Sequence record: OP745616
Length of the DNA stretch: 64,000 bases
Source of the DNA: Escherichia phage E20
Direction: 5' to 3' (one strand)
In this document: positions 2,212 through 64,000 of the stretch, piece after piece
How the letters are laid out: each line of letters starts with the position of its first letter
Numbering within the stretch: position 1 is the stretch's first letter
The notes under the pieces: model-generated
Databases searched by the model: none
The model's input: only the letters and a program-made list of their open reading frames with translations
Told to the model about the DNA's origin: nothing
Program-made: the position numbers and the translations under genes

Positions 2212-3264
2212 ATGGCGAGCATTGACTCCTTGACTGTATGTAATACACGCCAAGCCCGTAACTTTATTATCCGTGCCTTACAAGCAGGTAACGTACCGTT
2301 CCTGACTTCATCGCCGGGCATGGGTAAATCTGCAATTATCCGTTCTGTTGCAGAAGAATTTGGCATGAAGCTGATTGACCATCGTCTATCTACTTCTGCC
2401 CCGGAAGACTTATCTGGTCTACCATTCCGTAATGGTGACCGTGCAGAGTTTATCCCTTTCGCTGACTTATTCCCTATTGAGGGGGATGAAGTACCGGAAG
2501 GTTATAATGGCTGGCTCCTGTTCCTTGATGAGTTCAACTCAGCTAAGAAAGAAGTAGTAGCTGCTGCATACAAACTGATTCTAGACCGTATGACTGGACA
2601 GAAGAAACTACATCCTAATGTGATGATTATCTGTGCCGGTAACAAAGCTACTGACCGTGCTATCGTTAACCCACTGGGTACTGCAATGCAGTCCCGTGTT
2701 GTCCACTTCGAAATGGAACTTAACTTCGACATTTTTGTTGAAGACGTAATGATTCCGCAAGAATGGGATGAGCGTCTGGTTGCATTCTTACATGCTAATC
2801 CAGGCTATCTGCATGACTTCGACCCTGCCCATAAGAACAAAACATTCTGTTGTCCTCGTACCTGGGACTTTGTTAACAAAGACCTCAAGAACCGACCAGA
2901 AGGTGCTCTGCCTGATGAAGATTCTATCTACTATGCAGGCCACGTTACTGCCGGTAAAGCTACAGAATTTGTTCAGTTCACCCAGGTATATAATCGTATG
3001 ATTACGATTGAGAAGGTAGTCAAAGACCCATTGGGCTGTGCACTGCCTGAAGATAATAACCTGTGTTGGGCTACTGTTAACCATCTGGCTAACAAGACTA
3101 CTGAAGATAACTTCGTTGATGTACTTAAGTACATTGAACGATTCAAAACGTTCACCCATAAGATTCTGTACTTCCGTACAGCGGGTAAAGCATTACCAGA
3201 AATTCAGGCTACTCCTGAATGGCGTAAAGCTGCTGCCAACATCTCTCGTTACATTCACGGATAA
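2212..3264 (+). CDS. AAA+ ATPase, MoxR-like
   Basis: Walker A SPGMGKSAI and Walker B LLFLDEFN; 350 aa; adjacent to VWA-type partner as in MoxR-VWA pairs. Confidence 0.7.
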   Translation: MASIDSLTVCNTRQARNFIIRALQAGNVPFLTSSPGMGKSAIIRSVAEEFGMKLIDHRLSTSAPEDLSGLPFRNGDRAEFIPFADLFPIEGDEVPEGYNGWLLFLDEFNSAKKEVVAAAYKLILDRMTGQKKLHPNVMIICAGNKATDRAIVNPLGTAMQSRVVHFEMELNFDIFVEDVMIPQEWDERLVAFLHANPGYLHDFDPAHKNKTFCCPRTWDFVNKDLKNRPEGALPDEDSIYYAGHVTAGKATEFVQFTQVYNRMITIEKVVKDPLGCALPEDNNLCWATVNHLANKTTEDNFVDVLKYIERFKTFTHKILYFRTAGKALPEIQATPEWRKAAANISRYIHG

Positions 3265-3271
3265 TCACAAC

Positions 3272-4447
3272 ATGAACCAGATACCTCAGCACACACTTAG
3301 TGATGAACAACTCATGCGCGAGTATGACCGTATTCAGGCCCAAGCTTTCCTAGGCAAGTCTGCTGCGTTTTTTGGTTCATTGCTGTGTAGTCTTAAGTTC
3401 TCATGGAATCGTGAGGATTGCCCCACTGCATGTACTGACGGAATAGAACTCCATTTCAACCCAGACTTCTTTGTCTGGATGTGCCCTGATGCAAGAGAAA
3501 CAGTGCTAATGCACGAACTCTGGCATGTGGCATATCTACATGGCATCCGTTGTGGAAGCCGTGACCCGGAAGTCTGGAACCAGGCATGTGACCACTTCAT
3601 TAACCTTCAGTTAGAAGAAGACGGTTACAAGTTCACTGGTATCGACAAAGGCATTTGCAAAGACCCTCAATATAAAGGATGGGTTGAAGAAGACATCTAC
3701 GATGACCTGATGAAGAACCCTCAGAAAAGGCAGAAGCCGTCAGGGGGTGCTGGAGCAGGTCTTGCTGGCGACATGAAAGCTCCCTCTTCGGGGCAGTCCC
3801 AGGGTGCTGTTGTCAACAACGTAGTACGTGCAATGCAAAGCCAGAAGATGGCTGGTGGAATAATGCCCGGTAAAGGTGCTGGTCGTATGGAAGAGGTTAT
3901 TACCCAATTCCTTAAACCAGTAGTTCCATGGCAGGAAGTCCTGCTGAACTTCTTTACCGACATTGATGACACACACTATACGTGGGCCAGACCTAACCGT
4001 CGTTTTACTGACATCTATCTACCATCACTGGAAGATGATGAAGGTCGTTTACGACACCTAGCTTACTTTGAGGATGTATCTGGTTCTATTAGTAATTCTG
4101 ACTCTCTGCGTTTTAACTCAGAGGTTGCCTACGTTAAGAGCCAGTTCAATCCTAAGAAGATGACCCTTATTACCTTCGACGATATTATCCAAGAAGAAAT
4201 AGACATCACTGAAGAAGATACTTTTGAAGAGATTAAGATTACTGGTCGTGGTGGTACAAACCTTGAACCAGTGCGTGAATGGATTATTAAGAATAAGCCA
4301 ACCGCTGCAATCATATTCTCCGATATGTATGTTCGTCCTATGGAAGAATTACCATTTGATATCCCTATCATCTGGTGTGTTCTGAATAATCCCAATGCTA
4401 CCGTACCTTTTGGGGAGGTAGTTCATATCCCTAAAGGAATGAAATAA
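3272..4447 (+). CDS. putative metallopeptidase-like (HExxH) / VWA-like partner of the AAA ATPase
   Basis: ORF frame 3038..4447; ATG at 3272 directly after upstream stop; HELWH zinc-binding-like motif; overall resembles DUF2201/CoxE-type proteins paired with MoxR. Confidence 0.5.
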   Translation: MNQIPQHTLSDEQLMREYDRIQAQAFLGKSAAFFGSLLCSLKFSWNREDCPTACTDGIELHFNPDFFVWMCPDARETVLMHELWHVAYLHGIRCGSRDPEVWNQACDHFINLQLEEDGYKFTGIDKGICKDPQYKGWVEEDIYDDLMKNPQKRQKPSGGAGAGLAGDMKAPSSGQSQGAVVNNVVRAMQSQKMAGGIMPGKGAGRMEEVITQFLKPVVPWQEVLLNFFTDIDDTHYTWARPNRRFTDIYLPSLEDDEGRLRHLAYFEDVSGSISNSDSLRFNSEVAYVKSQFNPKKMTLITFDDIIQEEIDITEEDTFEEIKITGRGGTNLEPVREWIIKNKPTAAIIFSDMYVRPMEELPFDIPIIWCVLNNPNATVPFGEVVHIPKGMK

Positions 4448-59159: not shown

Positions 59160-60770
59160 TCACACAATGTATGAACGTAGTGGGTTAACACTATCTTCTT
59201 CTTCCTCATCCCACATCGGGTCACCCTTGTTATCCACCAAAGTCATACCTGCTTGTGGTTTCCAAGGATTGAGATAACCCAGCATGGAGATAGTATCAAT
59301 ACAGTCATCCTTACCTTTAATTCCATTAATGGTAGCTAGTTTAATCTGGCCCATGAACAAACCCATAATAGTTGTATCTCTCAACTCTTCTGGGAAATAC
59401 ATCTTACCGGCTTTGAACCATGGAACCACCAGGTTAAAGCGTGACAGTTTAGAGGTTACAGGACGGATGCCTGGCTTACCACCCTCAGAGGATGCAAAGT
59501 TAAAGAAGACATTTCGGTTAATCATTTCTTTCTGAAGTAGTGAAATGAATCCACCTTGCTGTCCTGTAATTTCGACCCCAACGTTTTGAGGTTGGTATTC
59601 TTGAACCAGACGGAACAAGTCGTCAAAGTTTTTATCCATAAGCTGACGATTAGCCACACCATCAACCCAGAACCAATCTCCATTAGAACTATAAGCCCAA
59701 ACTGATATGACACTGTAGTCACTGGTCTGTTTCTCCGAAGTAGCAAAGTCGGTTGTAATGTAATAGTTATAGCAAGACTTCATCCTTAATAGTTGCTGCC
59801 TGCTATACCATCTAATTTCACTATCCTGAACCAGTCTCTCATCTTCAGAGCTAATACGGAGCATAAGTTCCTGGTAGAAGCCCGCCAGCTTACCGGTCTT
59901 AACTGCCATGTCGTATTGGGCTTTGATGTAGTCATATGAGAAACGGTCATCCCATGCACCCTGAAATTCTTCCCTACTACAAGGGAACTTCTCACACACA
60001 GGCCATACGTTGACATCCCATGCACCGGACTCTACTGCTTCAATGATAATGTCTTCCTTATTAAAGGGAGTACCATTGAAAATTACTTTACGACGTGTCG
60101 GGTCAAGAGCATGGTTCACACCTTTATAAACAGTATCCTTAATAGCTTCCATGCTTGTCTTAGAGTTAGCATCACCATCACTAATTAAGTCATCCAGTAC
60201 GCAGAGTGTTGGACGTTTGCCGTATATCTTCGTACCACGAAGACCTGTCTTAGCACCAAACAACTTAACGCCCAGTCGATGACCTTCTGCATTACGAAAC
60301 TCTAACAGGTTATCCGTAAAGGTAGCTTCAGGTATCCATTGCTGAAGGAACTCACTATTCTTGTATCGGAATTCAATGTTCTTGCGTGCAGACTTAGCAC
60401 CATTATCCATTGAGTCAGATACGTAAATCATCCCTTCTACCTTACCTAAACTTGGTAAGTGCCCAAACACTGCCAGGAACAAAGTAAAGTATTCCATGAA
60501 CACAGCAGTCTTACCTGCACCACGGAAGCACAGGTTAACTACATACTGGTTCGGGGTAATCATCTTATCCAACATCTTCAGATGAACTGGGGGTGTTTTG
60601 TTGGATTCACCTTCTTTGCCATTAACTAACTTAATAAAGTTGGCAAAGGTAAGAGCAAACTGACTAGGAACATAGTTAGAAGAATTAAGGTGGGAGTAAT
60701 CCACCTGGTCTAGCCATTCATCTAGTTCCTGTTTAATTAACTCAGACATCTGTAATGTCCTCATCTGCAC
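59160..60770 (-). CDS. terminase large subunit
   Basis: Walker A-like CFRGAGKTAVFM near N-terminus, Walker B-like TLCVLDDLISD, C-terminal nuclease-like acidic motifs; 536 aa. Confidence 0.75.
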   Translation of the reverse strand: MQMRTLQMSELIKQELDEWLDQVDYSHLNSSNYVPSQFALTFANFIKLVNGKEGESNKTPPVHLKMLDKMITPNQYVVNLCFRGAGKTAVFMEYFTLFLAVFGHLPSLGKVEGMIYVSDSMDNGAKSARKNIEFRYKNSEFLQQWIPEATFTDNLLEFRNAEGHRLGVKLFGAKTGLRGTKIYGKRPTLCVLDDLISDGDANSKTSMEAIKDTVYKGVNHALDPTRRKVIFNGTPFNKEDIIIEAVESGAWDVNVWPVCEKFPCSREEFQGAWDDRFSYDYIKAQYDMAVKTGKLAGFYQELMLRISSEDERLVQDSEIRWYSRQQLLRMKSCYNYYITTDFATSEKQTSDYSVISVWAYSSNGDWFWVDGVANRQLMDKNFDDLFRLVQEYQPQNVGVEITGQQGGFISLLQKEMINRNVFFNFASSEGGKPGIRPVTSKLSRFNLVVPWFKAGKMYFPEELRDTTIMGLFMGQIKLATINGIKGKDDCIDTISMLGYLNPWKPQAGMTLVDNKGDPMWDEEEEDSVNPLRSYIV

Positions 60771-61431
60771 GTACTAGTTTAGAACCAGCAATCTCTTTGG
60801 TAGGTACGCCACTATTGATTGCATTAATTTGCTGTTCAGCTAATGCAGCAAGTGTTGCCTTGAGGTCAGTCAACCCTGAGTTCTCCCTCAAGTCCAGATT
60901 GATATTCGTTACCTGGTCTTTTGGTTTAGCTAAATGAGTAAGGATAGAGTTAGCTGCATCGCATCTTACTTTCTCACTTGCTGCTGTAGTCATCAGCTCA
61001 ACTTGAACATTGATTGCCTTCTGATAATTGTCTTGGTTCACAATCCACACTGGAACTAAACTTTGTTCCATAATGAGGTTAACTAACTTACCTCTGTGAT
61101 AAGCAGATACATAAGCACTAATATCTTTCTCACTGGTTCCTCGTGCTATGAGTTCTGCTTGTCGGTTAGGGAATGTTTTGAAGTAGGCTTCCTTATTTGA
61201 ATAGCCCATGTGTTTGTAAGTCACATACTGAACTGCATTCATGTAGTCCTGTGTCTTAAACTTACCTTCCTTCATAACACCAGAGTAAGAGATGAAGTTT
61301 TCCCGGAATGCTTCAGCAACTAGTTGGTCTTGGGTTATGTTATTAATCGTGTCTACCAACTCCTGGCTTACACTGTTCTTGAAGTTAGCAGGTAAGGCAT
61401 TAATGATCTGCTGCTTAGTTAGCTCACTCAT
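60742..61431 (-). CDS. putative terminase small subunit / DNA-packaging accessory protein
   Basis: 229-aa ORF immediately upstream of and overlapping terminase large subunit; positional inference only. Confidence 0.3.
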   Translation of the reverse strand: MSELTKQQIINALPANFKNSVSQELVDTINNITQDQLVAEAFRENFISYSGVMKEGKFKTQDYMNAVQYVTYKHMGYSNKEAYFKTFPNRQAELIARGTSEKDISAYVSAYHRGKLVNLIMEQSLVPVWIVNQDNYQKAINVQVELMTTAASEKVRCDAANSILTHLAKPKDQVTNINLDLRENSGLTDLKATLAALAEQQINAINSGVPTKEIAGSKLVRADEDITDV

Positions 61432-61602
61432 ACTTATCTCTCTACAAAGTTATGTCTATTAACGAAGATTATTTTCTTGGGGTGAGATACCCCTTGAAGA
61501 AACCATACCATACAGTTACACTTTAGTCATGATATAGAAAAAGTTCATGATACTAAATAGTATGTAATGTTCCGATGACCCTATTCCCCAAGGAGTACTC
61601 CC

Positions 61603-61893
61603 TTGAGAATCTATATGAGAGTCCTCGACTCTAAAGATGAATACAAGGAGCTAGACCATACCAAGGCTGGTATTCTACCGGATGATATTATCATTACACA
61701 TGATGAAGATACCTACCATGAATTAGCTGGGATGATGCTGTTAGAGAATCGTCCAGGCATTAAGATTTTAGAACCAAGAGAAACTTACTCTTTAGAAAAA
61801 CGCTTTTCAGCTCTTGTGTTCTTCACAAAATTACCTCATAGTGTCTCCATCAAACGAAGCAAAGATAGCGTTCGGATGACGGTGATGATGTGA
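61603..61893 (+). CDS. small protein, paralog family member 1
   Basis: shares core motif with five downstream ORFs (DDIIITHDEDTYHELAGMMLLENRPGIKILEP); start 61603 or 61615 uncertain. Confidence 0.4.
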   Translation: MRIYMRVLDSKDEYKELDHTKAGILPDDIIITHDEDTYHELAGMMLLENRPGIKILEPRETYSLEKRFSALVFFTKLPHSVSIKRSKDSVRMTVMM

Positions 61894-62042
61894 TTAGTCA
61901 TACCGCCTAGTAGACAGTGGCGGTACTCGTAAAGAGTTAATAACTTCTACAGTCAGGGTTCCCCGGCTCCTTTCCTACTCCGTAGGTCTAACGGTACATA
62001 AGTACCTAGGGGGATGAACTGACCCGTGATTGAAAACGGTAA

Positions 62043-62080
62043 GGGGTAGAGTCGAGAGGCTCTACCCCATTTCTTTTTCT
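62043..62080 (+). terminator. rho-independent terminator
   Basis: 9-bp stem ggggtagag/ctctacccc with 8-nt loop then atttcttttt. Confidence 0.5.
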
Positions 62081-62094
62081 GGAGGTATGCAATT

Positions 62095-62493
62095 ATGAGC
62101 ATCTACTTTTTTGATATTGATATTACTGGTGTACTACGCAAACAGGAACCCTATTACCTCGAAGAACCAGAGGTAGTAAGTAAGATGTTATCCCCGAGAC
62201 AATCAGTATTCTTTCCTGATTGCGAGGAGTCCCATGAGATTATTGGTTCTCTTTTTCTATCCAACCATCAGCTTAACGCTGAGATTCTTACTGAACCAAA
62301 GGTATACGACATTACCAAGTATAGTGATTTCGAGGAGTTCTTCCCCGGTGTACGATTCTATAAGATAGATGGTTGGGAATTGATAGCTGACCATAACGTC
62401 TTTAATAAAACACTTTCCATTTACTTCAGGCCTATCCCTAAAGGAAGGAAAATTAATCATGAAATTCGTAATGACCGCCCCCAGTTTTGTTAA
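62095..62493 (+). CDS. small protein, paralog family member 2
   Basis: 132 aa; core motif SVFFPDCEESHEIIGSLFLSNHQLNAEILTEP; RBS ggaggtatg upstream. Confidence 0.5.
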   Translation: MSIYFFDIDITGVLRKQEPYYLEEPEVVSKMLSPRQSVFFPDCEESHEIIGSLFLSNHQLNAEILTEPKVYDITKYSDFEEFFPGVRFYKIDGWELIADHNVFNKTLSIYFRPIPKGRKINHEIRNDRPQFC

Positions 62494-62773
62494 AGGGGAG
62501 TCCATGTACACAACTGACTTCACTTTAGAAGAAGTCATGGATAGCAACCCAAATCGTGTGATCCTGGTTCCTACCCTAGAGGATTACCATGAAGTAAGGG
62601 GTCAACTGTTCCTAGCAGGTAATGACCGTAAGGTTGTATGTATTATTCCACCCTCTGTCTATACAAACCACAATGCTAATGATCCTATACCTTACATGCT
62701 GGTATCCGATGAATACCAATGGGATAGTCGCTATGAGAATGGTGAGTACCGTTACTACTATGTGAGGAAGTAA
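62459..62773 (+). CDS. small protein, paralog family member 3
   Basis: 104 aa; core motif RVILVPTLEDYHEVRGQLFLAGNDRKVVCIIPP; overlaps upstream gene end. Confidence 0.5.
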   Translation: MKFVMTAPSFVKGESMYTTDFTLEEVMDSNPNRVILVPTLEDYHEVRGQLFLAGNDRKVVCIIPPSVYTNHNANDPIPYMLVSDEYQWDSRYENGEYRYYYVRK

Positions 62774-62776
62774 GCT

Positions 62777-63097
62777 ATGCACTTCTACTCATTAATTGCA
62801 CTAAGTACAAGCTGCTATCTCAGTAAGGTAACTAAGCAAGATTTCTTAAATGGTATACTGGATGGTGCTACTGTTTTATATGAACCTAGCGAAGAAGCTG
62901 ATGAGTTTATTGGTTCTTGTCTGATGTTAGGTATACCAATTACATTCATTAAGATAGATACATCGGTTGAAGTATCTGAGTTTGCACGGATATACATCTT
63001 CTCCTCCTGTGAACCTATGGTAGCTACTACTCTTACTGGTAGACTCATTACCCTCTATCCTTCCTCATATTTATCTAGCGACGAGTGTACCCAATGA
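62777..63097 (+). CDS. small protein, paralog family member 4
   Basis: 106 aa; core motif TVLYEPSEEADEFIGSCLMLGIPITFIKID. Confidence 0.5.
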   Translation: MHFYSLIALSTSCYLSKVTKQDFLNGILDGATVLYEPSEEADEFIGSCLMLGIPITFIKIDTSVEVSEFARIYIFSSCEPMVATTLTGRLITLYPSSYLSSDECTQ

Positions 63098-63432
63098 GTA
63101 GAGTGCTATTCTTACATCAATATACGGATGAGGTTTCTTTTTACTCAGGGAACGTCACTAAAGCTATTGAGTGGTTATTGCCAGAAGACTGTCATATGCT
63201 CATGCTACCGGGTGAACTAGCAGATAGTACTCGTGGTTCCATTCTTCTTCTAAATAGTCCAGCTAAGTTAACCATCCTTAATCCTGGAGAATCCATAAGG
63301 ATACCTGCTGGTGAATCCGCATTCTTGTTCTTTGAACCAAGGATAGATGAAGGTTTTGATGGGCTTACTATAGATGGTAGACCTAATAAAGATTTTAAAA
63401 GAGTAAGGATTATATCTCATGAAACTTACTAA
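63085..63432 (+). CDS. small protein, paralog family member 5
   Basis: 115 aa; core motif HMLMLPGELADSTRGSILLLNSPAKLTILNP. Confidence 0.5.
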   Translation: MYPMSRVLFLHQYTDEVSFYSGNVTKAIEWLLPEDCHMLMLPGELADSTRGSILLLNSPAKLTILNPGESIRIPAGESAFLFFEPRIDEGFDGLTIDGRPNKDFKRVRIISHETY

Positions 63433-63745
63433 GATAGGTTATGCTGGTGGACCCAATCCCACTATTCATACAACTTTACAGAACCTTGAACCAGGTAGAC
63501 TCACTCCTATTATCCTAGTACCTGATGAGCAAACCCTCCATGAAGTGAAAGGTCTCGCTCTAATACTAGGCAGGAAAGTTATTGTAAAACTACAAGAACC
63601 AGGAAAGGAATTACCATGGTCCTCTTCCTTGTACTCCCCCTGGCATGTGAATACGGATAAGTACACTCTTACCTTCATCATGAGTGATACCTTACAATCT
63701 CCCCATTTGGTATACGCTCCCTCCTATTTAACTGCTTATAAGTGA
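63419..63745 (+). CDS. small protein, paralog family member 6
   Basis: 108 aa; core motif TPIILVPDEQTLHEVKGLALILGRKVIVKLQEP. Confidence 0.5.
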   Translation: MKLTKIGYAGGPNPTIHTTLQNLEPGRLTPIILVPDEQTLHEVKGLALILGRKVIVKLQEPGKELPWSSSLYSPWHVNTDKYTLTFIMSDTLQSPHLVYAPSYLTAYK

Positions 63746-63946
63746 GATAGTTATAATATTTTTGCATACCAATTTGGTCATAGCTATGTGTAACTGTAGT
63801 GGTGTGGCAGGGGCTACACCCTTACACTCAACCATCCCCCCCGGTATGTTGACCGTGTAGCCACTACCCTACCCCACCTTACACGTTACACGTTGCTCCG
63901 CAACCTATGGACATGTCGTCCTATCATCAACTATTGGAGCTATCAT

Positions 63947-64000
63947 CATGACTACTACCGCTACTGTACGTATGACCGCAGGAACTTTACTTGGTACTGT
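63947..64000 (+). CDS. 5' end of a plus-strand gene truncated by window edge
   Basis: ATG at 63947 (MTTTATVRMTAGTLLGT...) continuing to window end; preceded by 200-bp non-coding region. Confidence 0.3.

Follow-up and report, generated by a model that had tools for sequence, protein, structure and literature searches.

The 64,000-nucleotide (nt) stretch of Escherichia phage E20 analysed here (sequence record OP745616; hereafter the window) carries six consecutive small open reading frames (ORFs), ORF1 to ORF6, on its plus strand between positions 61603 and 63745. Positions 61400-64000 matched 68 phage records by megablast, the best of them 85-91% identical, and all were G7C-like N4-type coliphages or Shigella or Klebsiella phages of the genus Gamaleyavirus (Schitoviridae). 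By sequence, the window belongs to this G7C-like, N4-type genus of the Schitoviridae. A preliminary description of the window had listed six small genes at this locus and quoted three motif strings; all six lie where it put them, and the strings are present in ORF3, ORF6 and ORF2. The genes are listed below with lengths in amino acids (aa) and with the ortholog groups (C numbers) used in the profile comparisons.

61603-61893, plus strand: ORF1, orthologue of N4/G7C gp70, group C1, PHROG 7213; 96 aa from TTG, 92 aa from ATG 61615
62095-62493, plus strand: ORF2, orthologue of N4/G7C gp71, group C0, PHROG 9160; 132 aa; heads the five-gene operon
62459-62773, plus strand: ORF3, orthologue of G7C gp71.1, group C2, PHROG 11661; 104 aa
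62777-63097, plus strand: ORF4, orthologue of G7C gp71.2, group C3, PHROG 12099; 106 aa; the most divergent member
63094-63432, plus strand: ORF5, missing from G7C, group C5, PHROG 12606; 112 aa from ATG 63094
63419-63745, plus strand: ORF6, group C4, PHROG 16338; 108 aa; the final gene before the terminal repeat

Each ORF matched its own PHROG at expectation values (E) of 1e-44 to 1e-65, and all six PHROGs are labelled "unknown function". N4 gp70 and ORF1 are 36% identical (E 3e-24), and N4 gp71 matches ORF2 at E 9e-7; both orthologies are also stated in the G7C annotation. The TTG start of ORF1 has a Shine-Dalgarno sequence (AAGGAG) 8 nt upstream, and the 96-aa form is found in most database homologues. 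For ORF5 the most likely start is ATG 63094, in an ATGA overlap with the ORF4 stop, rather than GTG 63085 of the program-made ORF list; its homologues are 112-113 aa long.

The preliminary description had the six genes following one another with overlaps of a few codons. Overlaps do occur between ORF2 and ORF3 (35 nt), ORF4 and ORF5 (4 nt) and ORF5 and ORF6 (14 nt), so that the frames of ORF2-6 overlap or abut, with overlap at three of the four junctions. ORF3 and ORF4, on the other hand, lie 3 nt apart, and ORF1 is set apart from ORF2 by a 201-nt non-coding spacer with a terminator, which gives a 1 + 5 layout. We infer that ORF2-6 form one operon and that ORF1 is a unit of its own.

Raw pairwise identity among the six ORFs was only 13-29%, and pairwise BLAST gave 20-30 bits. 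Because this similarity was low, we gathered the homologous locus from 16 phages, clustered all its plus-strand ORFs into ortholog groups and compared the groups as profiles; the relatives contributed the further groups C8, C22, C24 and C26. As control families we used gp1, gp2 and five other small early-protein groups. The hhalign probabilities were as follows.

C2-C4 (ORF3 and ORF6 families): 94%, E 1e-7
C1-C4 (ORF1 and ORF6 families): 93%, E 3.8e-7
C3-C5 (ORF4 and ORF5 families): 86.5%, E 4.6e-6
C2-C24 (ORF3 family and C24): 74%, E 2.7e-5
C0-C2 (ORF2 and ORF3 families): 64%, E 6.4e-5
C4-C24 (ORF6 family and C24): 52%, E 1.5e-4
C3-C24 (ORF4 family and C24): 50%, E 1.7e-4
C1-C5 (ORF1 and ORF5 families): 26%, E 7e-4
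Best of 91 control pairs: 3.4%, E 0.013

Iterated phmmer/hmmsearch gave the same grouping. In a database of 564 sequences, including about 400 decoys (stop-to-stop segments, at least 50 aa long, taken from elsewhere in the window), five of the six seeds converged on the same 78-79 proteins (84 after JWAlpha and inbricus were added). The converged set spans C0-C5, C24 and C26, and hence all six subfamilies of the window, and contains none of the decoys and none of the left-end early proteins. ORF4 did not expand as a seed, yet it was recruited from the others. C8 and C22 were never recruited by the iterated search and are therefore unrelated cassettes inserted in some arrays. These cassettes, of about 105-125 aa, lie inside the arrays of relatives at 3479-4179 of locus L004, 3532-3846 of L006, 3191-3505 of L007, and 3192-3506 and 3711-4073 of L011; given that they have no detectable relation to the family, the arrays of relatives are not purely paralogous.

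Low pairwise identity (13-29%) and the lack of any database family with an assigned function are what one would expect if the ORFs had no function or were mis-called, and the motif they share arose from composition or chance. That explanation is hardly credible and is already contradicted by the significant profile links with clean controls, by Shine-Dalgarno sites and coupled starts, by a ratio of non-synonymous to synonymous substitution rates (dN/dS) of 0.17-0.27 in every ortholog group, and by orthologues in over 60 phage records as well as hundreds of metagenomic contigs. The six ORFs are real genes and, by profile comparison, remote paralogues of one family, as the preliminary description had proposed.

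The shared core had been described as a hydrophobic strand, an acidic pair, a His-Glu motif, a glycine and a second hydrophobic strand. Across an alignment of 51 sequences, drawn from four subfamilies, the motif's His and Glu never vary; ORF4 has Asp-Glu in their place and ORF5 has Asp-Ser. An AlphaFold2 model of ORF6 built from this alignment (mean predicted local distance difference test, pLDDT, of 71; predicted template modelling score of 0.64; residues 31-60 at pLDDT 86-91) has three strands, one helix (residues 37-50) and five strands. According to this model, the core is a strand (IILV) followed by a helix that is opened by the acidic pair and contains both the His-Glu and the glycine. 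The segment after the glycine, described as a strand, is predicted to be the second half of the helix, and the His-Glu motif does not extend to ORF4 and ORF5. This strand-helix core is the best-predicted and best-conserved part of the proteins. The model of ORF5 was poor (pLDDT 56) and was not used.

Searching the PDB with the ORF6 model using Foldseek returned nothing better than E 1.2, and the fold matches were generic or non-significant; neither CheY-like receiver domains nor RecA-like α/β domains gave a significant whole-domain superposition. The same model searched against BFVD returned nine matches at E ≤ 1e-3 and about twenty at a probability of at least 0.9. These were all uncharacterised N4-like phage proteins of about 90-130 aa, from PhAPEC7, PhAPEC5, phi G17, EC1-UPM, IME11 and OLB145; several further matches came from KP8 and several from Achromobacter phages, with weaker ones to Zuri. 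Judged by length and phage, we take the BFVD matches to include relatives of ORF2, ORF3 and ORF5. The family proteins have isoelectric points (pI) of 4.3-8.9 and net charges of -8 to +2, and no signal or membrane features were noticed among their predicted features. They do not resemble DNA-mimic anti-defence proteins of the Ocr/ArdA-like type, since they are not strongly acidic and have no Pfam, NCBIfam or PDB sequence match. The family consists of small (92-132 aa) soluble α/β proteins specific to N4-like phages (Schitoviridae).

Sequence-profile searches of Pfam, NCBIfam, PADLOC and the PDB with the array proteins were all negative and the PHROGs carry no function, in keeping with the earlier statement that neither fold nor family was recognisable. 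A profile search of 1.84 billion cluster representatives returned 22 proteins at E ≤ 1e-3. Seventeen of them are genuine, being phage proteins of about 54-132 aa with the same motif; the other five, repeat-rich eukaryote-like translations in which only the 20-residue core was matched, were taken as spurious. With 17 genuine clusters in a search of this size, the family is confined to N4-like phages, and its recognition as one Schitoviridae-specific superfamily appears to be new with respect to PHROGs and Pfam. Nearly all matches of three word-seeded homologue searches were close relatives (59-96% identity, mostly above 75%). ORF1 is the most widely conserved member: a tblastn search with it matched gp70 homologues in 91 phage records, N4, Klebsiella KP8, Achromobacter JWAlpha and Pseudomonas inbricus among them. 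Literature searches yielded no functional data for either gp70 or gp71.

Several database records of the family deserve separate mention. In the distant N4-like phages JWAlpha (L017, 2980-5369) and inbricus (L018, 3483-4756) a gp70 homologue is followed by a spacer of about 250 nt and more genes of the family; in JWAlpha a terminator is annotated within the spacer, after which come four genes of about 105-137 aa and then the terminal repeat. The gp70-spacer-array layout seems, from these comparisons, to be ancestral to Schitoviridae. Two gp70 homologues 82% identical to ORF1 (P0056 and P0057) are recorded as Enterococcus faecium on a 2.76-Mb contig and are probably coliphage contamination or a chimeric assembly. 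The annotation of OY979416.1 (L012, Klebsiella phage vB_Kpl_K57alpha1.2) is offset from its sequence, with "DNA primase", "exonuclease" and "DNA polymerase" drawn across gp69, gp70 and the array.

Copy number at the locus varies among relatives, as had been anticipated, from two members in N4 to seven in PhAPEC7. The gene order after gp70 is given here by ortholog group.

N4: 2 members; gp71
G7C: 4 members; C0 C2 C3
Window, F22, pSb-1: 6 members; C0 C2 C3 C5 C4
IME11: 6 members and one unrelated C8; C0 C2 C3 C5 C8 C5
U1G, K57alpha: 6 members and one unrelated C8; C0 C2 C3 C4 C8 C5
Moonfish: 6 members, C8 and C22; C0 C2 C3 C4 C8 C22 C4
PhAPEC7: 7 members and C8; C0 C2 C3 C8 C5 C24 C4

Gamaleyaviruses have 4-7 members, of which the proximal four (gp70, gp71, gp71.1 and gp71.2) are fixed, while cassettes in the distal part have been gained, lost and reordered; gp70 and gp71 reach N4, KP8, JWAlpha and inbricus. 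When one phage has two copies of a subfamily, their identity is about 50% or lower, which argues against recent duplication. The duplications are old, because the paralogues are less than 30% identical and each has orthologues across the genus. Calling the array "locally amplified" was therefore an overstatement: only the distal cassette content varies.

Rapid divergence, by contrast, was borne out. Among gamaleyaviruses, substitution rates calculated by the Nei-Gojobori method gave the array groups dN values of 0.08-0.29 (0.29 for ORF4), dS values of 0.5-1.0 and dN/dS ratios of 0.17-0.27; the corresponding values for the neighbouring gene gp69 were 0.007, 0.29 and 0.023. The array genes are under purifying selection, yet they evolve far faster than gp69, with dN about 10-40 times higher. 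That their dS is higher as well is a hint of exchange with more distant alleles.

The array is placed as the gp70/gp71 set is in N4: on the plus strand, divergent from gp69 and terminase, and directly before the right terminal repeat. The neighbouring features in the window are these.

59160-60770, minus strand: large terminase, left of the array
60742-61431, minus strand: gp69 homologue, small terminase by the KP8 annotation; first gene of the divergent late operon and our rate control
63804-63821, plus strand: inferred left genome end, where the direct terminal repeat begins, GTGGCAGGGGCTACACCC, from homology to the left end mapped in IME11
63892-63904, plus strand: N4-type virion-RNA-polymerase P1 hairpin GTTGC-tcc-GCAAC followed by CTATGGACATG, matching P1 of N4 and G7C, upstream of gp1
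63949-64000, plus strand: start of the gp1 homologue (ATG 63949), cut by the window end and outside the family

ORF6, which is of similar length to gp1, was considered as a gp1 homologue and ruled out, as the next ORF (ATG 63949) is gp1 and is unrelated to the family.

In the 72917-bp linear genome of G7C, gp70, gp71, gp71.1 and gp71.2 lie at 70225-71698, just before the right terminal repeat. The "contains terminal repeat" feature begins at 71758 and equals positions 1-1160, which hold gp1, gp1.1 and gp1.2; the early genes gp1, gp2 and so on come after the left repeat. The termini of IME11 have been mapped by read pile-ups, which show one unique left end, with reads that begin GTGGCTGGGGCTACACCC, and a direct repeat of 401 bp (PMC3896407). 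In the IME11 locus as oriented here, this left end lies 91 nt past the last array gene and before gp1. The homologous left terminus here (about 63804) is 58 nt downstream of ORF6. Because the array is upstream of this homology-placed terminus, it is at the right end in the virion: the six ORFs make up the final ~2.2 kb of unique sequence and face the right terminal repeat, and they appear beside gp1 only because the assembly runs across that repeat. A sigma-70-like site at 63728-63757 (plus strand; TTAACT, 18 nt, TATAAT; 10 of 12 matches) overlaps the end of ORF6 shortly ahead of the inferred terminus; the sigma-70 scan gave fewer sites than shuffles would.

This location bears directly on the proposal that the array occupies the site of the first-injected host-takeover genes, and is an arsenal for host takeover or counter-defence that the virion RNA polymerase transcribes early. 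In the assembly gp1 and the P1 promoter adjoin the array, its copy number varies and its divergence is fast, and the spacer hairpin at 61974-61986 has in this phage a TCC loop of the N4 early-promoter type. N4, however, injects its left end first; the rest is drawn in by transcription, initially by the virion polymerase and afterwards by phage RNA polymerase II (RNAPII), and the virion-polymerase promoters are restricted to the left end (PMC4496689). Since the array is at the right end and the left end enters first, the positional argument fails; we infer that the array DNA enters the cell last. No family member was found in the left-end 5-6 kb of G7C or N4.

The promoters point the same way. 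As the criterion for an early promoter we used a conserved 5-7 bp hairpin with a 3-nt loop (TCC/TTC on the coding strand) followed by a TT(A/G/T)TGGA-like sequence; the early-promoter-like hairpins found in the left ends of N4 and G7C were all of the stem-TCC/TTC-stem form. The only conserved hairpin of the virion-polymerase type in the region is P1 at 63892, downstream of the array, and neither a conserved TCC/TTC-loop hairpin nor a sigma-70 consensus site was found upstream of ORF1 or ORF2. The TCC-loop hairpin at 61974-61986 was examined as a virion-polymerase promoter giving an RNA of about 85 nt and was ruled out, as the loop is not conserved and the downstream motif is missing. Only some relatives have the TCC loop, others having CTA, CCA or ATTC, while the stem covaries, which points to an RNA structure and not a promoter. 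An early, first-injected arsenal is thus a very improbable account of the array.

Transcription of the array in the middle phase by phage RNAPII, or later, is probable because its DNA enters last and neither a conserved virion-polymerase hairpin nor a sigma-70 consensus lies upstream. In LUZ7, another N4-like phage, transcripts from mid-infection cover the small ORFs at the right end (PMC9163698), and by analogy the timing of the array may be similar. A search for a recurring 12-mer promoter motif common to the rest of the window gave nothing convincing. Across gamaleyaviruses the divergent spacer between gp69 and gp70 hardly varies, and its conservation extends in part to N4 and KP8. It includes (61464-61500) a hairpin at 61479-61493, GGGGT...ACCCC, GATTCTTTTCTTGGGGTGAGATACCCCTTGAAGAAAC, followed by an AT-rich block at 61515-61565 with the direct repeat TCATGATA, and probably holds divergent promoters.

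The spacer between ORF1 and ORF2 is itself a conserved element.

61894-62078, plus strand: structured non-coding spacer, with hairpins at 61901-61925, 61974-61986 and 61993-62006 and a terminator hairpin at 62043-62068

The 201-nt interval is more conserved among gamaleyaviruses than the flanking genes, with several stems showing compensatory changes. RNAalifold predicted 48 pairs, with 93% of cells paired; double changes occur at 12 pairs, compared with 4.6 ± 1.4 in shuffles, and this number was reached in 0 of 500 shuffles, while slid controls gave at most 6. The minimum free energy of the single sequence is -69.7 kcal/mol (z = -3.4). At its end an 11-bp GC-rich hairpin and a T-run (62043-62078) directly precede the ribosome-binding site of ORF2, the structured part ending 16 nt before the start codon. 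The annotators of PhAPEC7 and JWAlpha independently marked a terminator at the same place, and both the first spacer hairpin and this terminator can be made out in N4 and KP8. The spacer had no match in Rfam, and ARAGORN found no tRNA in it; a pattern scan of IMG/VR for its first hairpin found 46 loci, only 17 of them with a family ORF, and added little diversity. Covariation and folding thus identify the spacer as a conserved RNA structure with an intrinsic terminator at its end. It may serve the ORF2-6 operon as an attenuator or leader, or be a small RNA derived from the 3' untranslated region, and terminator read-through probably gates the output of ORF2-6.

Taken together, we tentatively favor, with a probability of about 0.4, a role as non-structural accessory proteins, expressed in the middle or late phase, that bind a host or phage partner through the acidic start of the helix, the variable cassettes reflecting host-specific pressures. 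Under this model, the array DNA would enter last and be transcribed by phage RNAPII in the middle phase or later, with read-through of the spacer terminator gating ORF2-6. Each protein would bind a host or phage macromolecule via its conserved acidic helix start, and the variable flanks and cassette content would tune specificity, for example by modulating host factors or countering late-acting defences. A counter-defence role is possible. The virion protein table of one relative, Moo19, lists none of its array genes gp1-gp6.

A number of points weigh against this proposal. Conservation of gp70 and gp71 across Schitoviridae subfamilies fits a core function better than an arms race. The proteins are not markedly acidic overall (pI 4.3-8.9), the ORF5 model failed, and for ORF4 and ORF5 the shared fold is therefore drawn from sequence profiles and BFVD models. 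The promoter class was assigned by elimination, no RNAPII promoter motif being derivable.

The same conservation makes a core role in replication or packaging at the right terminus the main rival. The gp70 and gp71 proteins could have as their target the right terminus, the terminal repeat or an origin close by, and the additional copies would have been sub-functionalised. Both genes are kept across genera, their place between the terminase genes and the right terminal repeat is conserved from N4 to JWAlpha and inbricus, and N4 DNA synthesis has been reported to begin preferentially at the right end (PMC3896407). We nevertheless consider such a role unlikely: our searches revealed neither a signature of nucleic-acid binding nor homology to a DNA-binding fold, dN is 10-40 times the gp69 value, and distal members are present or absent among near-identical phages, which is unusual for core machinery.

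Small cofactors offer another comparison. N4-like phages use several of them (gp1, gp2 and N4SSB) to switch between polymerases, and which protein melts the middle promoters has yet to be identified (PMC4496689). Together with the terminator-containing leader of the array, this would suit regulators of the transcription programme that bind host RNA polymerase or phage RNAPII and tune the middle-to-late switch. The array proteins are not similar to gp1, gp2 or any known polymerase-binding protein, and 2-7 copies among close relatives would be unexpected for a set of regulators; we regard this explanation as improbable.

Returning to the accessory-protein model, a more specific and distinctly unlikely version is that the gp70/gp71 superfamily is an unrecognised, Schitoviridae-wide fold forming a late-arriving, riboregulated module of inhibitors of host factors or defences, with cassette turnover adapting it to hosts. 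The operon would then be switched on by regulated read-through of the structured RNA leader and terminator after entry of the final stretch of the genome.

Although N4-like phages serve in therapy and as a model of genome entry driven by transcription, their right-end genes are without an assigned role. Here, six "unknown" PHROG families and N4 gp70 and gp71 collapse into one family with a defined core, the true place of the array is fixed at the last-entering end, and fixed members are told apart from variable ones. Beyond the paralogue array, the structured leader and terminator are an additional lead, as five of the six genes are probably under the control of this conserved RNA. Should the proteins indeed act on host factors or defences, the distal variable cassettes would be candidate host-range determinants.

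Compared with known systems, the array is a family of a familiar general kind, to which the early, first-injected attribute was incorrectly attached. Variable accessory and anti-defence clusters of virulent phages likewise consist of small, fast-evolving genes, variably present among close relatives, in a genome arm. Such clusters usually hold unrelated genes, whereas the array consists mostly of paralogues of one fold, has two members conserved family-wide and has no demonstrated anti-defence homology. The N4 early genes (the gp1-gp14 region) are also small phage-specific proteins, mostly without known function, on the same strand; among them, gp8 is an inhibitor of the delta subunit of DNA polymerase III. 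They lie at the left end behind TCC/TTC-loop hairpins, while the array is at the opposite end, lacks such promoters and has no sequence similarity to them. Closer in position and size is the gp87-gp115 cluster of the N4-like Pseudomonas phage LUZ7, which also consists of small right-end genes without assigned function on the strand that carries the early genes and the middle genes. It contains 29 genes compared with 2-7 here, and LUZ7 and LIT1 proteins were not among the BFVD structural matches. The direct counterparts are gp70 and gp71 of N4 and gp70, gp71, gp71.1 and gp71.2 of G7C, orthologues found in the same place after gp69, with the same terminator spacer and the same orientation toward the right repeat. 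This phage has two members more than G7C and four more than N4, and what the databases hold as six unrelated PHROG families is here one superfamily.

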